From assembly GCF_051903065.1 (NCBI RefSeq), contig NZ_CP178438.1: a DNA stretch of 64,000 nucleotides. One strand, written 5' to 3'. A program made the translations under genes and the position numbers. Under the pieces are notes generated by a model. It was not told the DNA's origin and did no database searches. It saw nothing but the letters and a program-made list of their open reading frames with translations. The stretch comes from Escherichia coli. Its GTDB lineage: Bacteria; Pseudomonadota; Gammaproteobacteria; Enterobacterales; Enterobacteriaceae. Within the stretch, counting starts at the first letter, position 1; each line of letters opens with the position of its first letter. Positions 10,863-51,525 of the stretch are shown here, piece after piece.

Positions 10863-10899
10863 TGATGACTGCCGAGAACGTGCATTTTGTATACCCATC

Positions 10900-11062
10900 C
10901 CAGCACGACTGCCGGATGCGGCGTGAACGCCTTATCCGGCCTACGGGTGGCGTGAGAATTTGTAGGCCTGATAAGACGCGCAAGCGTCGCATCAGGCATC
11001 TGCACACGACTGCCGGATGCGGTAAACGTCTTGTCCGGCCTACATTTCGCCCGTAGGCAGTC
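10900..11062. repeat. REP/BIME cluster (about three REP units in alternating orientation)
   Basis: Repeated gccggatgcggcgtgaacgccttatccggcctac-type palindromic units between mhpE and mhpT. Confidence 0.85.
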
Positions 11063-13124: not shown

Positions 13125-13958
13125 TCAACGCATATTCAGTTTATTGGCGTGGTAGGCAATATGCTCGCCAATAAAACTGGAGACAAAATAATAGCTGTGG
13201 TCGTAACCCTCGTGATAACGGATTAACGTCTTGATATTCATCTCCTGGCAGATCTTTTCAAGATTTTGAGTCCGCAGCTGTTCTGCGTAAAAATCATCAC
13301 TCAACCCCTGATCAACCATGATTTCCGCAACGCGTTGACCTTGTGAAATAAGACTCACCGGATCGTAATCCAACCAGGCCTCTTTATTTTCACCAAGATA
13401 TGCGGCAAAGGCTTGCTGTCCCCACGGTACTTGCGATGGGGAGACAATGGGCGAAAACGCCGAGACGCTGACATATTCATCTGGGTTACGTAACGCCAGC
13501 ACCAGCGCGCCCAGCCCGCCCATAGAATGACCTGAGATAGACTTTCTGGTCGTTGCCGGAAAATGTTGCATCACTAAATCCGGCAGCTCGTTGCGGATAT
13601 AGTCATACATTTTGTAATGTTCATTCCACGGCGCTTGCGTCGCGTTCAGGTAAAACCCGGCACCTTGCCCGAGATCGTAACGGTCGGCATCTGCGACATG
13701 ACTGCCTCGCGGACTGGTGTCCGGCGCAACAATAATAATGTTGTGCTCAGCCGCGTAACGCTGCATCCCCGATTTAGTAATGAAATTCTGCTCATTGCAG
13801 GTCAGGCCCGAAAGCCAGTACAGCACCGGTAATTTTTCACCTGCAGCTTTTGGTGGGAGATAGACGGCGACATTCATTTCACATTTCAGTGATGCGGAAT
13901 AATGCCGATACACATTTTGCCAGCCGCCAAAGCTGGCATGTTTTTCAATGAGTTCCAT
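13125..13958 (-). CDS. frmB: S-formylglutathione hydrolase
   Basis: 277-aa ORF with the esterase GHSMGG motif; last gene of frmRAB. Confidence 0.93.
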   Translation of the reverse strand: MELIEKHASFGGWQNVYRHYSASLKCEMNVAVYLPPKAAGEKLPVLYWLSGLTCNEQNFITKSGMQRYAAEHNIIIVAPDTSPRGSHVADADRYDLGQGAGFYLNATQAPWNEHYKMYDYIRNELPDLVMQHFPATTRKSISGHSMGGLGALVLALRNPDEYVSVSAFSPIVSPSQVPWGQQAFAAYLGENKEAWLDYDPVSLISQGQRVAEIMVDQGLSDDFYAEQLRTQNLEKICQEMNIKTLIRYHEGYDHSYYFVSSFIGEHIAYHANKLNMR

Positions 13959-14050: not shown

Positions 14051-15190
<1,140 letters not shown>

Positions 15191-15194
15191 TCAG

Positions 15195-15470
15195 CTATTT
15201 AAGATAGGCACGAACCAGTTCAATAGTGTCGTCAACGGATTGGCTGACTTCGCGGCTGTAGCAGTCATTTCGGTCAAACGTTTCCCGGATATGGCTTTCA
15301 AGCACTTCAGCCATCAGCCCGTTAGCCGCGCCCCGAACGGCAGCAATCTGTTGGAGTATGGCACGGCATTCGGCATCACCCTCCAGCGACCGTTCCAGAG
15401 CATCAATCTGCCCCCGAATACGACGAACTCGAGTAAGGACCTTTTTCTTCTCTTCCGGAGTACTGGGCAT
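15195..15470 (-). CDS. frmR: formaldehyde-responsive repressor FrmR (CsoR/RcnR family)
   Basis: 91-aa product from the ATG at 15470 ([30 protein letters not shown]...). Confidence 0.92.
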
Positions 15471-15496
15471 TTCGCACCTCATCATCTGCACGCAAT

Positions 15497-15545
15497 ATAC
15501 TATAGGGGGGTATGCTATATGTCAATGCATACCCCCCTATAGTAT
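15497..15545. promoter_or_regulatory. frmRAB promoter operator: inverted repeat with G6 and C6 tracts
   Basis: atactataggggggtat (15497..15513) and its reverse complement atacccccctatagtat (15529..15545) lie just upstream of the frmR start, the architecture typical of CsoR/RcnR-family operators. Confidence 0.7.
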
Positions 15546-15629
15546 ATAACACTGGAGAATAATTGTTGTCCGAAGCCTAACCAGGTGAACGGTCCCTCAA
15601 GACAGATGGGGACCGTTTATGTGCTATTT

Positions 15630-16676
15630 TTATGCCGCATCCGCTAAAACAAACATCCCGTAAGGATGGATTTCGAGGTAATAGTGCTCACCAATATCGG
15701 GCTGTAAACGGGTGGCGTTTACTTGTAATAAAATCTCCTGTCCATGCCACTCTACGGTCACTTCGTACTGCGGCCCCATGTAGGCGACATGGCGAATAAC
15801 ACAACGCTGACTCTCTTCGCCGTGATTGCTTAAGGTGATGGCTTCCGGGCGAACGCCGACGGTGCCGCTACCTTGCGCCGGGAAATGCGCCGCGCGCGGC
15901 AGGCGATAACCGTAGATATCGACATACTCTTCGCTAAAGTTCGCCGGGAACAGGTTGGCGTCGCCCATAAAACTTGCCATAAATCGGGAGGCTGGCTGAC
16001 GATAGAGATCCTGCGGTGAGCCAATCTGCATGATGTGACCTTTATTCATCACCAACACAGTGTCGGACACCGCGAAAGCTTCACTTTGATCGTGAGTGAC
16101 GTAGAGCGACGTGATATTAAACTGCTTTTGCAGCTCGCGGATCTTATCGCGCATACTGCGGCGCAGGTTGGCATCGAGGTTACTTAACGGCTCATCAAAC
16201 AGCAGCACCTTTGGCTTGAGGATCAACGCGCGGGCCAGTGCCACACGCTGTTGCTGACCACCGGAAATCTGATCGACATAGCGGTCCTCGAAGCCTTCCA
16301 GATCCACCATTGCCAGCGCCTCCTTCACCCGCTGTTTCACTTCGCTACGCGAGACGCCAAGCATCTTCAGCCCGTAGCCAACGTTTTCACCCAGCGACAT
16401 ATGCGGGAACAGAGCGTATGACTGAAACACCATGCAGATATCGCGCTGTTGAATGGAACGATGCGTGACATCTTCGCCATCAATAAAAATTTGCCCTTCG
16501 CTCGGTTTTTCCAGCCCGGCAACCAGACGCAAAATGGTGGTTTTGCCACAGCCGGAAGGACCGAGCAGCGTCACCATTTGCCCTTGTGGAATGGTGAGAT
16601 TGATATTGTCGATAACCGTATTACTGCCGAATCGTTTAGTGACGTTGCGCAGTTCAACAAAATTTTTCTGACTCAT
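15630..16676 (-). CDS. ABC transporter ATP-binding protein (AfuC/FbpC-like)
   Basis: Walker [10 protein letters not shown], signature [15 protein letters not shown], Walker B LLFDEP; start placed at the MSQKNF ATG (16676) preceded by GGAG, with an alternative ATG at 16688 overlapping the upstream stop. Confidence 0.85.
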
Positions 16677-16687
16677 AGTGCGCTCCA

Positions 16688-18766
16688 TTACGCCTGGTTT
16701 TTGGCTTTAGAACGGGAGATACGAGCTTCTCCGATCAGCCAGTCAAAGAGGAAAATAATCGCCAGCATCACCACGATCAGAATCGAACCATAGGCGATGG
16801 CTACGCCATATTCGCCGTCTTCAACGCGGTTAAGAATGTAGGCGGTTGCCACGCGGGTGTCCGGCGTGACGAGAAAGACGATGGCGCTGACCGTCGTGAT
16901 GGCCCGCACAAAGCTGTAGATCAGGGCCGAGAGAATGGCCGGACGCAGCAGTGGCAGTAAAATGTGGGTTATGGTTCGCAAGGAACCTGCGCGCAGGCTG
17001 AGTGAGGCTTCATCCAGCGATTTGTCGATCTGCCCCAGGCCTGCAATCCCGGCGCGAATACCCACCGGAACGTTACGCATCACCATCGAGATAATCACAA
17101 TTGCCGCCGTTCCGGTGAGATAAACCGGAGCGCTGTTAAAGGCAAGAATATACGAAACGCCCGCCACCGTACCCGGTACGGCAAAGCACAGCATGGTGGT
17201 GAACTCGATGGTCTTTTTGCCTTTGAATTGTTGACGCACCACCACCCAGGCGATGAGCAGGCCAAAGATAGCGGTAATGGGAGCGGCAATCCCGGCGTAG
17301 AGCAGGGTATCCAGCAGTGAAGGCCACGCGCCGTCGCTCATTCCCTGACCAAATAGCTTGATAAAGTTATCCAGCGTCAGGGTGTAGTCCACGCCCCAGT
17401 TCACCGTGAAGCTGCCGTAGAAAATGCTGCCGTAGAGCAGGGCGTTAAAGGCAATCCATATCGCAAGTATGGCGACCACGCTCCACACCAGGGTGACCGG
17501 TAGCGGCTGGACGTCGCCACGGTAGGATTTGCCGGAAACCGTGACGTAAGAGCGTTTACCAATCCACATATACTGGATGCAGAACACCAGCAGCGAGAAC
17601 AGCAGCAGGAAAGCGCCAAGGGTGCTGGCGGCCTGATAATCCAGCTGCGAGCCGGTAATATAGAAGTAAATTTGCGTCGCCAGTACGTCGAAGTTACCGC
17701 CAAGTACCAGCGGGTTACTGAAATCAGCCAGTGACTGTACCACGACGATTAAAAAGGCATTGGCGAGTGCGGGCTTCAACAACGGCACAAACACGCCGTT
17801 AAAGGTTTGCCAGCGGCTGGCGCGCAGGGTGTAGGAGGCCTCTTCCAGCGAGGGATGAATGGTTTTAATGGCCCCGTCGAGGATCATAAATGCCATTGGC
17901 GTGAATGCCAGAACCTGTGCCAGCCAGATCCCGGTAAAACCGTACAGCCAGTTGGTGTTGGTCAGCCCAAACCACTCCACCATAAATTCCGTAACATAGC
18001 CGGAGCGCCCCATCATGAGCGTCACGCCTAAGCCGACCACAAACGGTGGCGTAACGATGGGCAAAATGGAAAAGATGCGACCAATAATGGCGCTGCGTTT
18101 AGCGATGCGCGTGGTATAAATCGCCAGCACCAGGCCGAAGAAAGTACAGCCTATCCCCACCGCTATCGACAAGACGATAGAGTTGACGATCACCTGAACA
18201 ATATGTGCCTGCGAGAGCACGGTCATAAACGCCAGCGGGGCGAACTCTCCCGCGTCGTTGGTGAACATCGGGATAAAAATGGCGATGCTCGGCCAGACGA
18301 TAAAAATGCCAATCAGCGCCACAATCGCAATCAGTGAGCCGATCACGAAGCGGTCGCCACCCAGCCATTCGAGGCGGGTTAAGGCCAGCGTCATAATCGC
18401 GCCTAGTTCGACAAACAGCACGATGGCGGCGTAGCCTAAACCGCGTCCAACCACGGTGGCGCTGATGACGATAAACGCCATACAGAGCAATGCCCAGCCG
18501 GCATCGAAATAATGACGGCTACGTTGTTCGCGCGTGGCCTCACTAAACGGGCGGACCAGCAACAGGCTCGGGAGTAAATACCACAGCCAGCTGATATTAA
18601 AATGCGACCAGCCATAAGCCTCGAGGATCTCATCACTCGTGGACTCCAGCAGGCCATAATCGAGGCTCCAGCTCGGCAACAGTATAAATGCCAGCCAGCC
18701 CAGCAAAACCCAAAGGAAAATCGCATCCCGCTTTTTCACGGGATGGAGTGCAAGTGTCTGTGACAT
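16688..18766 (-). CDS. ABC transporter permease, two fused transmembrane domains (AfuB/FbpB-like)
   Basis: About 692-aa highly hydrophobic ORF; probable ATG at 18766 ([12 protein letters not shown]); the ORF track extends to a TTG at 18817. Confidence 0.82.
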
Positions 18767-18834
18767 AGTAGTTCCGGTATGGTTGGCCGGGGCAGGCGTT
18801 TGTGCTGCACCCGGCAAATACGCCTAATGCGGGT

Positions 18835-19866
18835 TTATTTACCCATCTTCACTTCGCTGACCCATTTATTAATCAATGCCTTACGAACATCCGTGGAACC
18901 ATATTTATCCATGTCGTAGTTGATTAATTTCAGGTCGTCGAGCTTCAGCGAATTTGGCGACGTTTCGGCGGTGGTATTGGTCAGGATCTGATAAGACTTC
19001 CCTTTCTTCCACGCCAGTTCCTGAGCTTCTTTTGATAATACCCAGTCCACAAACAGTTTGGCGTTGTCGAGGTTGCGCGCGCCTTTCAGAATGCTGACGC
19101 CGCCAATTTCGTAGCCCGTACCTTCACACGGGGAAATCAACTCCAGCGGCGCGCCCTGTTCTTTTTCCAGCGAGTAGTCATGCAGGAAGCCAATACCAAT
19201 CGCCGTTTCGCCACGGGCGGCGTTACGTGCCGGGGCTATGCCTGATTTGGTGTACTGAGAGACGTTGGCGTTCAGTTGTTTTAGATAATCAAAGGCCTGA
19301 TCTTCCCCCCACAGCTGCGCAAAAGTAGCCAGGGCGGTGTAGGCAGTACCGGAACTTTGCGGATCGGCAATTTGAATTTCGCCTTTATATTCCGGTTTGG
19401 TGAGATCTTTCCAGCACTTCGGCACCGGCAGGTTTTTCTCTTTCAGACGATCGGTGTTTACGCCAAAACCGAGGATCCCCACATAAACGGCAGAGGACAG
19501 ATTCCCTTTCACTTTTGCCGGATCGCGGAATTTCTCCATGATCTGCTCAAGGGTAGGGGATTTATACGCCTGTAGCAGGCCCATCTCGCCAGCCTGCGAT
19601 TGCGGGTCTAAAGTGCCGCCGTACCAGACGTCAGCCTGGGGGTTTTTCTTTTCAGCATCGACTTTTGCCAGGGTGCTTCCGGAACCGTTGCGGATAAACG
19701 AGGTTTTTACATCATATTTCTCGCCAAACGCTTTGGTTTCGGCCTCACACATTTCATTGGTGGCGCTGCAATAGACCACCAGCCGGCCTTTTGCCTGCGC
19801 GGCACCCGTTAAAGTCGCCAGCGCAACGGCAGAAGCAATCAGAGTAGAGGTAAAGGTCATTTTCAT
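18835..19866 (-). CDS. periplasmic substrate-binding protein (AfuA/FbpA-like, likely sugar-phosphate binding)
   Basis: Starts MKMTFTSTLIASAVALATLTGAAQA (signal peptide); the ATG at 19866 overlaps the stop of the upstream MFS gene (ATGA). The longer track ORF to 20193 is a frame artefact. Confidence 0.85.
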   Translation of the reverse strand: MKMTFTSTLIASAVALATLTGAAQAKGRLVVYCSATNEMCEAETKAFGEKYDVKTSFIRNGSGSTLAKVDAEKKNPQADVWYGGTLDPQSQAGEMGLLQAYKSPTLEQIMEKFRDPAKVKGNLSSAVYVGILGFGVNTDRLKEKNLPVPKCWKDLTKPEYKGEIQIADPQSSGTAYTALATFAQLWGEDQAFDYLKQLNANVSQYTKSGIAPARNAARGETAIGIGFLHDYSLEKEQGAPLELISPCEGTGYEIGGVSILKGARNLDNAKLFVDWVLSKEAQELAWKKGKSYQILTNTTAETSPNSLKLDDLKLINYDMDKYGSTDVRKALINKWVSEVKMGK

Positions 19867-21179
19867 TGTTTTATCCTTCGAGCGTGAGTGGTGGTGATGC
19901 CCGCCATCAGTAACGGCATCAGCAGTAAACCCATAAGTACTGCGGCGACCGAGAGTAAACTGAACATTCCCGGCCAGCCGTAGCGTTCGATGACCAGCGA
20001 CAGCGGCCAGCCTGCCAGCGCCGCGCCAAGGTAAGCGAACAGGCCGAGAAATCCGGTGATTGAACCCGCCGCAGCTTTGTGCCCACACTCCACCGCCGCA
20101 AGTCCAATCAGCATTTGTGGGCCAAAGACGAAAAAGCCCACGGTAAAAAAGCACACTGCCAGCAGAGCGTAGTGATGAACCGGTGCCAGCCACAGTGCGG
20201 CGACTGACACCATCAACCCCAACGTGAACAGCAAAATCATTGGCGCTCGTTGCCCGCTAAACAGCAAATCCGATCCCCATCCGGCAAATAACGCGCCGAG
20301 TAAGCCGCCCACTTCAAACAGCATTACCGTGGCGTTGGCGCTGAGCAGGTTGACACCGTGGCTTTCCGTCAGCCAGATATTGCCCCAGTCGTTAAGCGCA
20401 ATCCGGATCACATAAACCAGTACATAAGAGACGCCCAGTAGCCAGATCAGCGGATTTTGCAGCATGGTGGTGCGCAACATTTGCCACAGCCCCATCGGCG
20501 GACTTTGTTGTTCCTGACGTAACTCCAGCGGATCGTGACGCCAGTGACCAACTGTCGGTAATCCCTCTTCCTGGGGCGTGCCTTTGAGTTGTAGCGTTAA
20601 CCAGATCCCTAATGCCATGCTGATTATCCCCGGTGTCAGCATCGCGGCCTGCCAGCCCCACCAGTGGGCGGCAAAGGCGCTAATCAGCGGAATAATCGCT
20701 CCGCCAATGTTGATCGACATATTCCAGCAGCCCCACCAGAAACCGCGCTCATTGCGTGAGTACCAGTGGGTCAGCAAGCGGGCACACGGTGGCCATCCCC
20801 AGCCCTGAAAAAAACCGTTCAGTGTCCAGACCACAAGCAGAAGCGTAAGTGATTCGCCAAAGGCAAACACCACGTTCAATAACCCGGTGGCGAACAAGCC
20901 GACGCCCATAAAACCGCGTTGTCCGTGGCTGTCATGCCACAGTCCGGCGGTAAATTTCGACAATCCGTAGCTGAGATAAAACAGCGAACCCAGCAGGCCA
21001 ATGTCGCCTTTATCCAGTCCGAGGTCGGTTTGTAGCGCCGGAAGGACGTAATTCACGCTTTTTCGCGTCAGATAAAATGCGGCGTAGCCAATAATCATGC
21101 ACATCAGCAATCGCGGACGTAATGCCCGGTAGCATTGATTAATTTCTCTCGCTGAACGCGCGTGCATGGTTGTCTCCAT
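19863..21179 (-). CDS. UhpC-like MFS sugar-phosphate sensor/transporter (organophosphate:phosphate antiporter family)
   Basis: 438-aa ORF with 12-TM MFS character and clear similarity to UhpC as recalled (GYAAFYLTRKS, FQGWGWPPCARLLTHWYSRNERG); an alternative ATG lies 4 codons downstream. Confidence 0.82.
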   Translation of the reverse strand: METTMHARSAREINQCYRALRPRLLMCMIIGYAAFYLTRKSVNYVLPALQTDLGLDKGDIGLLGSLFYLSYGLSKFTAGLWHDSHGQRGFMGVGLFATGLLNVVFAFGESLTLLLVVWTLNGFFQGWGWPPCARLLTHWYSRNERGFWWGCWNMSINIGGAIIPLISAFAAHWWGWQAAMLTPGIISMALGIWLTLQLKGTPQEEGLPTVGHWRHDPLELRQEQQSPPMGLWQMLRTTMLQNPLIWLLGVSYVLVYVIRIALNDWGNIWLTESHGVNLLSANATVMLFEVGGLLGALFAGWGSDLLFSGQRAPMILLFTLGLMVSVAALWLAPVHHYALLAVCFFTVGFFVFGPQMLIGLAAVECGHKAAAGSITGFLGLFAYLGAALAGWPLSLVIERYGWPGMFSLLSVAAVLMGLLLMPLLMAGITTTHARRIKQ

Positions 21180-21251
21180 GTTGCTGACTATATGAAAATG
21201 AAAGTGAAAGGGGATGAGAGAAAATCCGGGATACCTAAGACTTTTTCCTGG

Positions 21252-22793
21252 TTATCCGGCGATTTGTTGCAAAAATGTGGGCAAGTTAACAATTACCCGC
21301 GTGCCGTGCTGTTTTTCGAGCGTTAAGTCGCCGCCCAGGGCGCTGACGCGCTCACGCATCCCCTGAATGCCAAATCCGGCCATTTTCCCGCTGGCGATCC
21401 CCACACCGTTGTCGCTGACCTCCAGATGCAATACCTCTCCCTGCTGGCGCAGGATAATCGTCACTTCGCTGGCTTCGGCGTGTTTACAGACGTTATTGAG
21501 CAACTCCTGCAATAACCGATACAAGGTAAAGCGCACCGTTTCGTTTTCTGGTGTGGAGTTCAGTTGATAGGCAAACTGGCAATGAATGCCGCGTTCACCA
21601 AAGGCAAATTCATTAATCAGATGCAACAACGCTTCGCGAAATGTCAGTTCATCAAGCGCGGGAGGCCGCAACTGGCGCAGCAATTGGCGGGTGGAGAGAT
21701 GAATGCGGCGGGCGAGCTCATTGATTTGGCTGGCTGCGGATTGAATTTGCGCCGGATCACGCGCCCGCTTCACCAGTTGCGACTGGATCTGAATGGCGGT
21801 GATGTTCTGACCGATTTCGTCGTGCAGCTCTCGCGCCAGGTTTTTTCGCGTGTCCTCCTCGGTGTGGATCAACTTTTCCGCCAATGCCCGCCGCGCTGCC
21901 AGCTCGGCCTCCAGCCGTTGTCGGTAATGGTGCAGGTTTAGCGCCAGATGTTGCTGGCGACTGATGGCAATGCCCAGGCCAATTCCCAGCAAGGCCTGGG
22001 TCGCGAGGAAAATCTCCAGCTCCACCAGGTTACTAAAGCCCACGCCAATCTGGCGGGCGATGGTGATCATCATGCTGCCCAAAAGCCCGGAGAGTACGCC
22101 ACCTTGCCAGCCAAATTTCCACGCCATCACCACATTGGGCAAAAAGACCACGATCAACAGCAGACGCTCAATTTCAGGTGACAGCACCATCTGAGTGCCG
22201 ATACCAATGATAAAAAACAGGCTACACCAGATGATTAAAGAGGTACGCAAGGGGGGATTATGCGTATCGAGTCCCAGGAGCTGGTAGCGATGCTGCTGGC
22301 GCAGAAACTCAAAGATAAGATAGACAAACGGCGTCAGTAATACGCCGCCGGTAAATGAGGTCAAACCCGGCAGCATTATTGGGCCTGACATAAAAGGGGA
22401 GAGCAGGGCGGTATTCAACAATGAAGCTGCCGTGACAGTGGCTAACAGCAACGTCAGACGCTGCCAGTAAAGTGGAAAACGGTGCCAGAAGTTTTGCGCA
22501 AGGAGGACAGGAAACAGGCTAATAACCGGCGTTGCCAGCATGAGATAACCGTTCAATAGCTGCTCACTATGGAGCCAGAACATCATCAGCAAAGGGGGGA
22601 GTACCAACGCAGGCCAGTAGCGGCGAGAGAGCAAAATAACAAGGGCGAGATAAACTCCCTGCGGGAGAAACAACACCGCCTGTTGACCGTTATTGGTCAG
22701 ATAAAAGCTGAGCGTCCACAGCATCAGCCAGCCGGTTCCCCAGGCCAACACAATAAACAGCGAAATCACCCAATGACGAAGATTGCGCGACAT
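21252..22793 (-). CDS. UhpB-like sensor histidine kinase (MASE1 membrane domain plus HisKA_3/HATPase)
   Basis: 513-aa ORF; the C-terminus has an H-box (RELHDEIGQNITAI) and ATPase motifs (DNGVGI, GFGIQGMRERV), similar to UhpB as recalled. Confidence 0.85.
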   Translation of the reverse strand: MSRNLRHWVISLFIVLAWGTGWLMLWTLSFYLTNNGQQAVLFLPQGVYLALVILLSRRYWPALVLPPLLMMFWLHSEQLLNGYLMLATPVISLFPVLLAQNFWHRFPLYWQRLTLLLATVTAASLLNTALLSPFMSGPIMLPGLTSFTGGVLLTPFVYLIFEFLRQQHRYQLLGLDTHNPPLRTSLIIWCSLFFIIGIGTQMVLSPEIERLLLIVVFLPNVVMAWKFGWQGGVLSGLLGSMMITIARQIGVGFSNLVELEIFLATQALLGIGLGIAISRQQHLALNLHHYRQRLEAELAARRALAEKLIHTEEDTRKNLARELHDEIGQNITAIQIQSQLVKRARDPAQIQSAASQINELARRIHLSTRQLLRQLRPPALDELTFREALLHLINEFAFGERGIHCQFAYQLNSTPENETVRFTLYRLLQELLNNVCKHAEASEVTIILRQQGEVLHLEVSDNGVGIASGKMAGFGIQGMRERVSALGGDLTLEKQHGTRVIVNLPTFLQQIAG

Positions 22794-23422
22794 TAATGCC
22801 CCGCCAGCAGATGGTGGTCGAGCGCAAAATGTACCAGTTCAATGGTGCTATGGCAGTTCAGTTTTCCCAGCACATTGGCGCGATGCACATGTACCGTTTT
22901 ATGACTGAGTTCGAGTTTAAAGGCGATCTCTTTAACGCTGTCTCCTTTGACCAGTAAATCAAACACTTCACGTTCTCGTGGGGTGAGAATTTCCAGCGCC
23001 TGGGCGGGTTGCCCGCCGCCGCGTAAAGCCCGAATCGCATCGGCACAGAGATAATGCCCGCCCAGCCCGACCGAGCGCACCGCCTGTACTAACTCTTCCG
23101 GCCCACAGCGTTTGGTTAAATACCCGCTGGCACCGGCATCCAGCGCGCTTTGCACAAAGGTTGGCGCGTCATAAATGCTAAGAATAATGGCGCGAAATTG
23201 CGGTTTTTGTGCACGCAGGCGCTTAAGCAAACTGAGGCCGTTTTCGTCCGGCATGGCAATATCAATGACGGCAACATTGACGTCATCACGGATTAATGCC
23301 GACCATGCCTGCGCGGCACTACTGTACTGACCAATGACCTCCAGATCGTCTTCCAGAGAGAGTAATTGTGCGAAGCCAGAGCGCACCACCACATGGTCAT
23401 CCACCAGCACTACCCGAATCAT
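22793..23422 (-). CDS. UhpA-like response regulator (NarL/LuxR family)
   Basis: 209-aa ORF (MIRVVLVDDHVVVRSGFAQLL...) with a C-terminal LuxR HTH (LTPREREVFDLLVKGDSVKEIAFKLELSHKTVHVHRANVLGKL); 1-nt TAATG overlap with the kinase gene. Confidence 0.88.
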   Translation of the reverse strand: MIRVVLVDDHVVVRSGFAQLLSLEDDLEVIGQYSSAAQAWSALIRDDVNVAVIDIAMPDENGLSLLKRLRAQKPQFRAIILSIYDAPTFVQSALDAGASGYLTKRCGPEELVQAVRSVGLGGHYLCADAIRALRGGGQPAQALEILTPREREVFDLLVKGDSVKEIAFKLELSHKTVHVHRANVLGKLNCHSTIELVHFALDHHLLAGH

Positions 23423-23724
23423 ACTTTTCTTCTCTTATTATCTAATTCTCCTATCATGCATCACGGCGCGGCGCTGGCAATCAACCAGCGACAGATATGG
23501 AATGGATGTAACAAAATGGCAATAATTTGCCGGAGCGCGCACATCTTATCTGGCTTGTGAACCGGCGGGATACGTTCGCCAAAACCGCAAAATGCGCAAA
23601 CTCGCTAACCATTGCCGATTTTTTTCTAAAAACGCTTTGTTCTTAACAAGACCTTTTAATTCCTTTATCAAACTGACCCGCAACGAAATACTGCTCCCAT
23701 AACAAGACAGGGGAGCAGACAATC

Positions 23725-28745: not shown

Positions 28746-31688
<2,943 letters not shown>

Positions 31689-31710: not shown

Positions 31711-32399
<689 letters not shown>

Positions 32400-45731: not shown

Positions 45732-47065
45732 TTCCTCGCCTTCCCCTTGAACGGGAGGGCATTTTTCTGAAATATCCTCTCTTTAACCCATAATAATATT
45801 TCCTTTGCTGCGATTTTTTCAATTTCCGATATATTCATAATTCATCAAGGTTGATATCAATATCATTGAAGATTATGAATAGAATTAATATATTGGTCAT
45901 CTGTATGGTCGTGTTTTTTATGACTGGCAATGCATGTGCCACAGAGTGGATCAGTAGCGAGGACCTTATCACCTCTGACTTTCATCTTATGACGGCAGAT
46001 GAGCGCAACGTGGTTAAAGCGGCAACCGACGATAGTATGGAAGCTGCTTATATGCTAAAAGATAATATCCGCTGGTATTATCATAATGGTAACCTATCAT
46101 TACCCGCTAACTTCAGCAATCAAAATAAACTGGTGGTGAACGGTAATTTAACGATTTCCGGCGATTATGATGATTATCTGTCAGGTAATGGTCATCTGAT
46201 TGTATTAGGTAATGTTATTGTCGATAACTTTATTAATCATGATTTCGCGTATGTCAAAGGACAGATGACAGCGAAAGGTTTAGTTTATGCTGATTACAAT
46301 GATCACAACTTTGAAGTGATGAAGGGAATTAGCGCGCGAGGCATTATTGTTTCCGATAAAGCAACGCAATTTGAGGTCATCAAAGCTGAGTTTTATATCA
46401 ATGAAGATGAAAGCGGTGAAGGATATAACTGGGATGAGAATATTCAAAAAGCCTATTCACTGGTGACTGCCGATCTTTATGATCACACTGAAATCGAAAC
46501 CGATAACATTTCCAATGCGTATCCTGACTATGATAGCGTCGCAGACAACATCGTTCAGGGTTTACCTCTTTTTTGCGATAAAGCCGCTCCTGAAATTAAT
46601 GAGAAATTAAAATGGATTGAAACGGGGAAACTCGATAATTTCCCAGCGAATAAAATAAAGCATCAAGATCCACTGGTGGCACGTTTTCTGACTCATACAG
46701 AGAGTTTATCACCCGCCGTTATGCTGCAACTGTTACAGCACCCCGATGACCAGACGCGTGAATCGATGGCGCAGTCCTGGCCCGCTCAACAGATGCATTT
46801 GCTTACCGATGAATTAATTAAAGATGAGGCTGTTGCCAGAGGGCTGGTTAAAAACAGTAATATTTCCGCCGATGTGAATAAAAAATTAATGTCTGTACCC
46901 GTCGAGAGCGTACAGCTGGAGCAGGCCAGACAGGATAATCTTTCTCCAGATATTGTTGCGTCGTTAAGTCATAGCCCCTTTCTCAGTGTACGCAAGACAT
47001 TACTCAGCCAGGTGATGCTGCCAACTTACTGATTTAGTGTATGATGGTGTTTTTGAGGTGCTCCA

Positions 47066-47341
47066 GTGGCTTCTGTTTCTATCAGCTGTCCCTCCTGTTC
47101 AGCTACTGACGGGGTGGTGCGTAACGGCAAAAGCACCGCCGGACATCAGCGCTATCTCTGCTCTCACTGCCGTAAAACATGGCAACTGCAGTTCACTTAC
47201 ACCGCTTCTCAACCCGGTACGCACCAGAAAATCATTGATATGGCCATGAATGGCGTTGGATGCCGGGCAACAGCCCGCATTATGGGCGTTGGCCTCAACA
47301 CGATTTTACGTCACTTAAAAAACTCAGGCCGCAGTCGGTAA
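47066..47341 (+). CDS. insA: IS1 protein InsA
   Basis: 91-aa ORF ([43 protein letters not shown]...) at IS1 positions 56..331. Confidence 0.95.
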
Positions 47342-47763
47342 CCTCGCGCATACAGCCGGGCAGTGACGTCATCGTCTGCGCGGAAATGGACGAACAGTGG
47401 GGCTATGTCGGGGCTAAATCGCGCCAGCGCTGGCTGTTTTACGCGTATGACAGGCTCCGGAAGACGGTTGTTGCGCACGTATTCGGTGAACGCACTATGG
47501 CGACGCTGGGGCGTCTTATGAGCCTGCTGTCACCCTTTGACGTGGTGATATGGATGACGGATGGCTGGCCGCTGTATGAATCCCGCCTGAAGGGAAAGCT
47601 GCACGTAATCAGCAAGCGATATACGCAGCGAATTGAGCGGCATAACCTGAATCTGAGGCAGCACCTGGCACGGCTGGGACGGAAGTCGCTGTCGTTCTCA
47701 AAATCGGTGGAGCTGCATGACAAAGTCATCGGGCATTATCTGAACATAAAACACTATCAATAA
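47260..47763 (+). CDS. insB: IS1 InsB (transposase made as an InsAB' fusion by -1 frameshift at the A6C motif near 47317..47323)
   Basis: 167-aa ORF in the -1 frame relative to insA; the aaaaaac slippery site is present in the overlap. Confidence 0.93.
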
Positions 47764-48927
47764 GTTGGAGTCATTACCACTCAGCCATTACGATTACGCC
47801 TGGCTGGTTCCGACTGCAGTGGCCGATGAGTTGATAAATAACGAAGACCCGGAGTTACGTGAAAGAATTACCGGAGCAGATTTAACCGCACAACAAGCAG
47901 TGATGTTGAGTAAAGATAAATCACTGAAAGTTCGTGAAGCATTAGCCCGGACGCTTACTGAATTAAAAATTACCCAACTGTCAGCAACCCTGCGTACAGA
48001 GGATATTGAACGTATCGCAGAACAAATGTATCTGGATAATAAAGAAAATAAAAATATCGTAAAAGCGTTATTGATAGCGTTGCCGGAGATGCGTCAACTG
48101 TCTCTGGCAAAAGAAGATGTGCACAATTTGCGCGAAGGTGCGCGTTATCTGACATCGAAGGACGTGATTAGTTATCTATTGACTCAGCATGATGTTCCCA
48201 CCGTCTGGGATGAGCTGGCACGCGATAAATTATTGCCGCTGGAATATAAGAAACAGTTATGGCAACGCACATTAAATTTAATGATGAGCAAACGGCAAGA
48301 AGATCAAGAGCAAGCCTACGAAGTACAGCTGGCGCTGATTGATAATGGTGTTGTTGACGAAGAGATGTTAAATAATGCCATTGATTTACTGGTTGATTTA
48401 CCCGCTGAATACCGCTATCGAATGCGTAACCAATTATTTGATAATAAAGATTTACCTTCCGGAATTATCAACAAACTCGATCAACAGTATCGCTTCAACT
48501 CTGACTGGGCGCTGTCTGTTGACAGTATGAAAAATAGCACCCGTAGGCAAAGTGAAAGAGGATTACACCGCTGGAACCGTGAGGATAGCGATATTTTTGC
48601 GGAACTGGCGACGATAAAAGATAAATCAGATGATGAATGGTGGCGTGCATTGCTGCAAAGTCGCAATGATCATTTGCGCCAAACGGCATTACGCAACGCA
48701 CATACCCCGGCGTCGTTGTTAACGACATTGACTGAGCCTCAGGATCGGTCGCTGGCTATTAATAATCCACAGCTGGCTGCCGATGTGAAAACGGCGTGGT
48801 TAAAAGAGGATCCATCATTACTCTTATTTGTCGAACAACCCGATCTTTCGCTGTTACGTGATTTAGTGAAAACCGGGGCAACGCGGAAAATTCGCAGTGA
48901 AGCGCGTCACCGGCTTGAGGAAAAACA

Positions 48928-49383
48928 ATGACACAACGTCCATGGAGCAAGTTACAGCGGGAGATCTATGACTTACTGACGCCAACGATCAACCTGCAAA
49001 TTCACTGTACCCGTTATCCCATGCGCAGCCAAAATGGTGGAAGCACCGATTTACCGCGTTATTGGATCACGTTGGATAAAAACGTGATCTGGGATTACCC
49101 GAAAGACTTTATTGCAGGTAACGGTGGAGTGCGTAATTTTCACGGTGAAACTTGCTGGTATCCTTACCTGACGGATATTTGTTCAATTTCTGATTTATTG
49201 CGTGAATATATTGATACCCCAAAAGCGGAGCTGTTAACAAAACAATTTACCAGCGATAAATGGGGGTTAGTGAATATTCTGCGTGCTGCTGACAGGCGAA
49301 TAGGGATGAGGCGATTAGATCAGTTACGGCGTAAAACGCATAATATTGCTGCGCTAAAAATTATTGCCCGCCGTAGCGAATAA
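48928..49383 (+). CDS. hypothetical 151-aa protein, translationally coupled to the upstream repeat-protein gene
   Basis: ATGA start/stop overlap at 48928..48931; no signal peptide; no family recognised. Confidence 0.6.
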
Positions 49384-51424: not shown

Positions 51425-51525
51425 CATCATGCCTGATGCGACGCTTGCCGCGTCTTATCAGGCCTACAAAATGTGCCAGAACCGCGTAGGGCGGATAAGG
51501 CGTTCACGCCGCATCCGGCAATAAG
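51425..51525. repeat. REP/BIME cluster (two REP units)
   Basis: catgcctgatgcgacgcttgccgcgtcttatcaggcctac and gtagggcggataaggcgttcacgccgcatccggca between mak and araJ. Confidence 0.85.

Follow-up and report, generated by a model that had tools for sequence, protein, structure and literature searches.

Between the frmRAB operon and a variable gene cassette in the window, the 64-kb stretch of E. coli DNA analyzed here, lies a large inverted repeat with a run of six G or C residues in each arm. The question that it raises is whether it serves as a binding site for the regulator of the adjacent operon, as an RNA hairpin, as a boundary element of the cassette, or as a promoter switch. We conclude that the repeat is almost certainly the operator of Pfrm, the frmRAB promoter induced by formaldehyde. 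The element is genuine and functional, and it is not new, having already been described for K-12 (Denby et al. 2016, PMC5146963).

Geometry of the Inverted Repeat

The sequence ATACTATAGGGGGGTAT occupies positions 15497-15513 on the plus strand, and its exact reverse complement occupies 15529-15545, with 15 nt between the two. A sequence-only reading of this DNA had reported these two 17-bp arms, and both are present as described; the true arms are longer. Complementarity continues without mismatch for two bases inward and two bases outward on each side, and the full perfect inverted repeat, which constitutes the FrmR operator region of Pfrm, spans 15495-15547, with arms of 21 nt each (15495-15515 and 15527-15547) around an 11-nt spacer. 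Its sequence is ATATACTATAGGGGGGTATGC-tatatgtcaat-GCATACCCCCCTATAGTATAT. These arms form the longest perfect inverted repeat of the 64-kb window, the runner-up having arms of 13 nt, and the longest arm found in 100 first-order Markov simulations of the window was 15 nt. The arm 17-mer, with up to three mismatches allowed, was observed twice, against an expectation of 0.06 occurrences per shuffled window. Perfect arms of 21 nt are therefore far beyond chance.

Each arm reads ATAC-TATAGGGGG-GTAT, with a G6 tract and ATA/TAT plus ATAC/GTAT flanks, and conforms to the type I CsoR/RcnR (DUF156) operator pattern as defined in PMC5146963. The repeat is better read as two operator sites, one per arm, than as one. 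The promoter-proximal type I FrmR site (15497-15513) reads ATACCCCCCTATAGTAT on the minus strand, which is the frmR-sense strand, and overlaps the -10 hexamer. The promoter-distal type I FrmR site (15529-15545) reads ATACTATAGGGGGGTAT on the minus strand and is directly upstream of the -35 hexamer. The two sites face each other, and their centers are 32 bp apart, corresponding to ~3.05 turns of B-form DNA. This distance suggests that both sites present the same helix face in B-form DNA; in the model of Denby et al., the tetramers are about a quarter turn apart. The recognition unit itself can be parsed in two ways, either as ATAC-N9-GTAT (Denby) or as AT-rich flanks around C6 (Osman). For E. 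coli, the probable assignment of the sites draws on the sequence pattern together with FrmR binding to a whole-promoter fragment.

The frmRAB Operon and Its Predicted Core Promoter

The gene next to the repeat is frmR (15195-15470, minus strand, ATG at 15470), which encodes a 91-aa repressor of the CsoR/RcnR family (PF02583, E = 3e-23). It is followed by the second operon gene, frmA (14051-15160, minus strand), encoding S-(hydroxymethyl)glutathione dehydrogenase, and the third, frmB (fghA; 13125-13958, minus strand), encoding S-formylglutathione hydrolase. The FrmR protein of this strain is 100% identical to K-12 FrmR (PDB 5LBM), with Pro2, Cys35, and His60 present. Its sequence (MPSTPEE...C35...H60), the Pro2/Cys35 methylene-bridge pair, and the presence of frmA and frmB downstream place it in the FrmR subgroup of the family. 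The distance from the repeat to the frmR start on the minus strand, put at about 30 bp in the sequence-only reading, is 24 nt from the 21-nt arm and 26 nt from the 17-nt arm. The repeat is thus found where the promoter of a family repressor would be, with a PF02583 gene 24 nt downstream and promoter hexamers overlapping the repeat.

Between 15300 and 15800, only one sequence resembles a sigma-70 promoter, TTGACA-17-TAGTAT on the minus strand. The predicted -35 hexamer TTGACA (15520-15525, minus strand) agrees with the consensus at 6/6 positions and is contained in the spacer between the two sites, and the predicted -10 hexamer TAGTAT (15497-15502, minus strand), 17 nt from the -35, is contained in the proximal FrmR site. 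Operator and predicted core promoter are interleaved, with the -35 in the spacer and the -10 in the proximal arm. Transcription is predicted to start at ~15490-15492, which fits the "inverted repeat centred at -29" of PMC5146963. A Shine-Dalgarno-like GAGGTG (15475-15480, minus strand) lies 4 nt ahead of the frmR ATG.

Published FrmR Binding and the Proposed Mechanism of Repression

For K-12, Denby et al. (2016, Sci Rep 6:38879, Fig. 6a; PMC5146963) described the large inverted repeat as two type I FrmR sites in tandem. FrmR binds Pfrm with a Kd of ~220 nM, compared with ~3600 nM for control promoter DNA (PMC5146963). BLItz measurements showed that FrmR comes off Pfrm after formaldehyde treatment, and frmRAB transcription in vitro is inhibited by FrmR and relieved by formaldehyde (PMC5146963). 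Repression and derepression of Pfrm, both in vitro and in vivo, have thus been published for an identical FrmR acting on near-identical DNA (PMC5146963). The assignment of the repeat to a CsoR/RcnR-family FrmR, made earlier from the DNA sequence, is borne out by the complete identity of the adjacent FrmR with that of K-12 and by this formaldehyde-reversible binding. Related data come from Salmonella, where the 33-bp frmRAPro probe TTCTGATAGTATACCCCCCTATAGTATATGGAG binds two FrmR tetramers with a KDNA of ~1e-7 M (Osman et al. 2015, 2016; PMC4528141, PMC5016687). The core of that probe is the exact E. coli arm 17-mer, and FrmR binding was undetectable once the left AT-rich flank of the probe was mutated (PMC4528141, PMC5016687). 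FrmR is also named in a 2026 PLoS Pathogens paper on formaldehyde resistance, which does not treat its promoter or operator.

We infer that each 17-bp arm core is one type I site, which should accommodate a single FrmR tetramer. For E. coli, this stoichiometry is a model only, because the 33-bp Salmonella probe, with a single 17-mer, takes two tetramers. With the predicted -35 located between the sites and the -10 within the proximal one, FrmR occupying both sites would enclose and mask the core promoter and exclude RNA polymerase by promoter occlusion. Formaldehyde links Pro2 to Cys35 of FrmR, the tetramer changes shape and releases the DNA, and transcription of frmR, frmA, and frmB follows. 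Repression of Pfrm is also autorepression, since the operon begins with frmR.

Conservation of the Promoter and the Neighboring Cassette Junction

Of 5426 complete E. coli genomes, 5415 carry the 143-bp promoter segment (15420-15562) with ≥95% identity, irrespective of the cassette upstream. K-12 Pfrm is the same element at the same locus, and its 17-bp sites, spacer TTGACA, -10, leader, and FrmR (100%) are identical to those of this strain. There are two substitutions: K-12 has T at 15514 where this strain has G, with the result that the perfect arms are 19 nt in K-12 and 21 nt here, and K-12 has T at 15491, near the predicted transcription start, where this strain has C. The upstream neighbor also differs, being afuC/fbpC here and yaiO in K-12. 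Strains EDL933 and 96_1414P have spacer single-nucleotide polymorphisms (SNPs) that leave TTGACA intact, and the -35 TTGACA is kept in all E. coli spacer variants examined except the single flipped spacer discussed below. Separately, strain A12 (NZ_CP028762.1) has C7 instead of C6 in the distal arm (window 15532-15537), a one-base homopolymer change in an operator site.

Homology to K-12 stops at 15562/15563, after GGAGAATAA, 15 bp past the outer arm. An island junction had been anticipated within about 100 bp of the repeat, and comparison with K-12 now places it at this 15-bp distance. The variable segment beyond it, the "afu/uhp island" (15563-23686), encodes fbpC/afuC, an ABC permease, a substrate-binding protein, uhpC, a sensor kinase, and a response regulator. 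It stands in place of K-12 379974-385193 (yaiO, yaiX::IS2, yaiP, ykiC, and yaiS), and K-12 homology resumes after it at the tauA promoter. An afu-type neighbor is found in 450 of the 5415 genomes. The afu/uhp cassette therefore stops 15 bp short of the operator, and the entire promoter is preserved on the conserved side. On the island side, a 9-bp perfect hairpin (AACGGTCCC...GGGACCGTT) is located at 15588-15617, just past the afuC/fbpC stop, with a T-rich run after it on the plus strand only. This hairpin may be the cassette's own terminator.

Alternative Roles of the Repeat

The repeat could instead act mainly as an RNA hairpin, serving as a terminator of, or a barrier to, read-through from the upstream gene (afuC/fbpC here, yaiO in K-12). 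The genes upstream of the repeat are co-oriented with frmR, and the minus-strand RNA, if transcribed, forms a 21-bp stem with a folding energy of -38.5 kcal/mol (z = -7.4). We nevertheless regard this role as very unlikely. On neither strand is there a U-run after the stem, and the repeat was not called in the terminator scan. The afuC gene has its own separate hairpin at 15588-15617. The single-site relatives in Citrobacter, Enterobacter, and Salmonella lack the hairpin yet keep the 17-mer, and across phyla the 17-mer tracks CsoR/RcnR genes. A specific candidate of this kind, an intrinsic (rho-independent) terminator, was rejected on the grounds that the strong stem has no T run on either strand. 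An Rfam scan of 15100-15900 returned no family, only far-sub-threshold matches to miRNA hairpins.

An even smaller chance attaches to the repeat being a recombination or mobile-element feature that sets the island boundary, either as terminal inverted repeats or as an integration target; we consider this extremely unlikely. Its attraction is the position of the afu/uhp junction, only 15 bp from the outer arm, together with one genome in which the spacer is inverted, suggesting that the arms can recombine or template-switch. Against this, the repeat lies wholly in the backbone common to both cassettes (5415 genomes, 450 of them afu-type), there is no transposase or integrase in the variable segment, and that segment replaces yaiO-yaiS rather than being an insertion. 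The junctions share no repeat with the arms, and nothing related is found at the right junction, 23686. As a candidate, a mobile-element terminal repeat or att site was rejected, the repeat being in the shared backbone with no copy at the other junction.

The genome with the inverted spacer is that of FJ_Ec_21 (NZ_CP143627.1; L014 41-93). Its 15-nt K-12-type spacer (window 15514-15528) is exactly reverse-complemented while flanks and arms are intact, so that TTGACA faces away from frmR and no -35 match is left on the frmR strand. A search with the flipped version among the 5415 genomes carrying the segment gave no second spacer flip. A common spacer flip was a candidate that we rejected, since it occurs in one genome only and the 95.6% identity class has the normal orientation. 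The FJ_Ec_21 flip may have arisen as a rare event, by inversion or template switching, or may be an assembly artifact. There is a slim chance that the operator arms double as a quasi-palindrome able to invert the 11-15-nt spacer together with the -35. Such a flip, if real and recurrent, would amount to a rare heritable off-switch for formaldehyde detoxification or to a template-switch hotspot inside the promoter. That the repeat is primarily an invertible or cruciform promoter switch, whose flipped spacer turns the -35 away and silences the operon heritably, is exceedingly unlikely. FJ_Ec_21 does have precisely such a spacer between intact arms and no longer has a -35 on the frmR strand. Against this, no other of the 5415 genomes shares the flip, which could be a palindrome assembly artifact or a one-off template-switch mutation; no invertase is present, and arms of 19-21 nt are short for recombination.

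Other Features of the Window

With the repeat read as the operator of Pfrm, it matters little beyond correct annotation, since this operator-promoter of the formaldehyde-detoxification operon has already been published for E. coli. Pfrm already serves as a formaldehyde biosensor in synthetic methylotrophy.

Elsewhere in the window, several features were observed that are separate from the frm locus. In the lac operator O1 region (473-507) there is a T at ~501 where K-12 has C (ACAATTTCACACA vs. ACAATTCCACACA). This T creates a 13-nt perfect palindrome around O1 and equals a G to A change at lac -1; two further SNPs are found near the lacZ Shine-Dalgarno and codon 3. A 13-nt perfect inverted repeat, TAATGCCCGTCAAggatTTGACGGGCATTA, at 31729-31758, overlapping the 3′ end of the region of a long ORF (28746-31688), looks like a terminator. 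Colinearity with K-12 is also broken at 28839-30234, 45874-48589, and 48960-49321: the yaiT region differs from that of K-12 and is without the K-12 IS3, and ~2.7 kb plus 0.36 kb near ykiA/ykiD have no K-12 counterpart. A short element at 10896-11043, probably a repeat of the REP/BIME type, has a copy at ~51429-51525 and resembles K-12 411076-411269, which lies between mak and araJ, with 84-86% similarity.

Relatives of the Operator in Other Species and Plasmids

Other genomes were scanned for the exact 17-mer using one genome per species, and the resulting counts are lower bounds biased to exact matches. The exact 17-mer ATACCCCCCTATAGTAT was detected at no fewer than 120 loci of other genomes (L018-L137). 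In 91 of 120 among the matches listed, the 17-mer is followed at 0-200 nt by the start of a CsoR/RcnR-family gene, and the site therefore co-occurs with genes of this family well outside E. coli. An FrmA-like dehydrogenase adjoins the 17-mer at a minimum of 25 loci, and it is for these alone that the regulated genes were identified. The family-linked 17-mers among the matches listed span Proteobacteria, Firmicutes, Actinobacteria, and others. The genera represented among the matches listed include Bacillus, Paenibacillus, Oceanobacillus, Nonomuraea, Streptomyces, Agrobacterium, and Janthinobacterium, along with Verrucomicrobia metagenome-assembled genomes (MAGs). Going by these conserved sites, DNA recognition seems to vary very little among sensors whose effectors are presumably different.

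The arrangement of sites is more restricted. Among the matches listed, the tandem inverted arrangement is found in E. coli and E. albertii only. In both E. albertii and a Moellerella plasmid, two inverted sites are separated by a spacer that contains TTGACA. Citrobacter, Enterobacter, Lelliottia, Kosakonia, Siccibacter, and Cedecea have a single site directly before the Shine-Dalgarno, with TTTACA ~19-20 nt upstream. The plasmid FrmR homologs that are 89-91% identical (Klebsiella L002 and Moellerella L003) are associated with two inverted ATAC-N9-GTAT sites that have been kept (300-400), in which G6 is replaced by GGGAGG/CTCCGA or GTGGAG/CTCCAC. More distant plasmid-borne frmR homologs (an E. 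coli plasmid, 53%; Ralstonia; Acinetobacter) have one site.

G/C tracts had been put forward as the hallmark of this operator class. That part of the sequence-only reading stands for the present locus, where both arms contain G6/C6, and does not extend to the sites of the plasmid homologs, which contain other tracts. The G tract is not invariant, because the sites of the 89-91%-identical plasmid homologs carry GTGGAG or GGGAGG; judged from the sites compared, it is not strictly required across the wider group and varies in close relatives. What is invariant across the relatives is ATAC/GTAT plus the -35, not the G6 tract.

Comparison with Known Operators

A close known counterpart of Pfrm outside E. 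coli is the Salmonella Typhimurium frmRA operator, which shares the exact 17-mer ATACCCCCCTATAGTAT and responds to a CsoR/RcnR-family FrmR that is released by formaldehyde, and which needs its AT-rich flank. Unlike the E. coli operator, it has only one site, immediately ahead of the Shine-Dalgarno and with a more complete left flank (ATAGTATA); Citrobacter, Enterobacter, and Kosakonia are arranged in the same way. The Salmonella frmRA operon is without frmB, and FrmR in that single-site group is ~53-57% identical.

A two-site arrangement is known from E. coli rcnR-rcnA, where, in the account of Iwig & Chivers 2009 cited in PMC5146963, there are two type I G6 sites, one tetramer is proposed for each, and the system is autoregulated. 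The rcnR-rcnA region of a Salmonella plasmid likewise contains two directly oriented copies of TACT-C6/7-AGTA. RcnR has the motif TACT-G6-N-AGTA and Ni/Co as effector; its two sites, judging from that plasmid region and the rcnRAPro probe, are direct and closer together, whereas the FrmR sites are inverted. The RcnR motif is absent from the repeat, in whose arms (ACTATA-G6-TATGC) the G tract is not followed by AGTA. The operators of CsoR-type copper sensors in Firmicutes and Actinobacteria have the identical 17-mer 40-140 nt upstream of distant CsoR/RcnR-family genes; they are single sites and presumably have other effectors and target genes than Pfrm.
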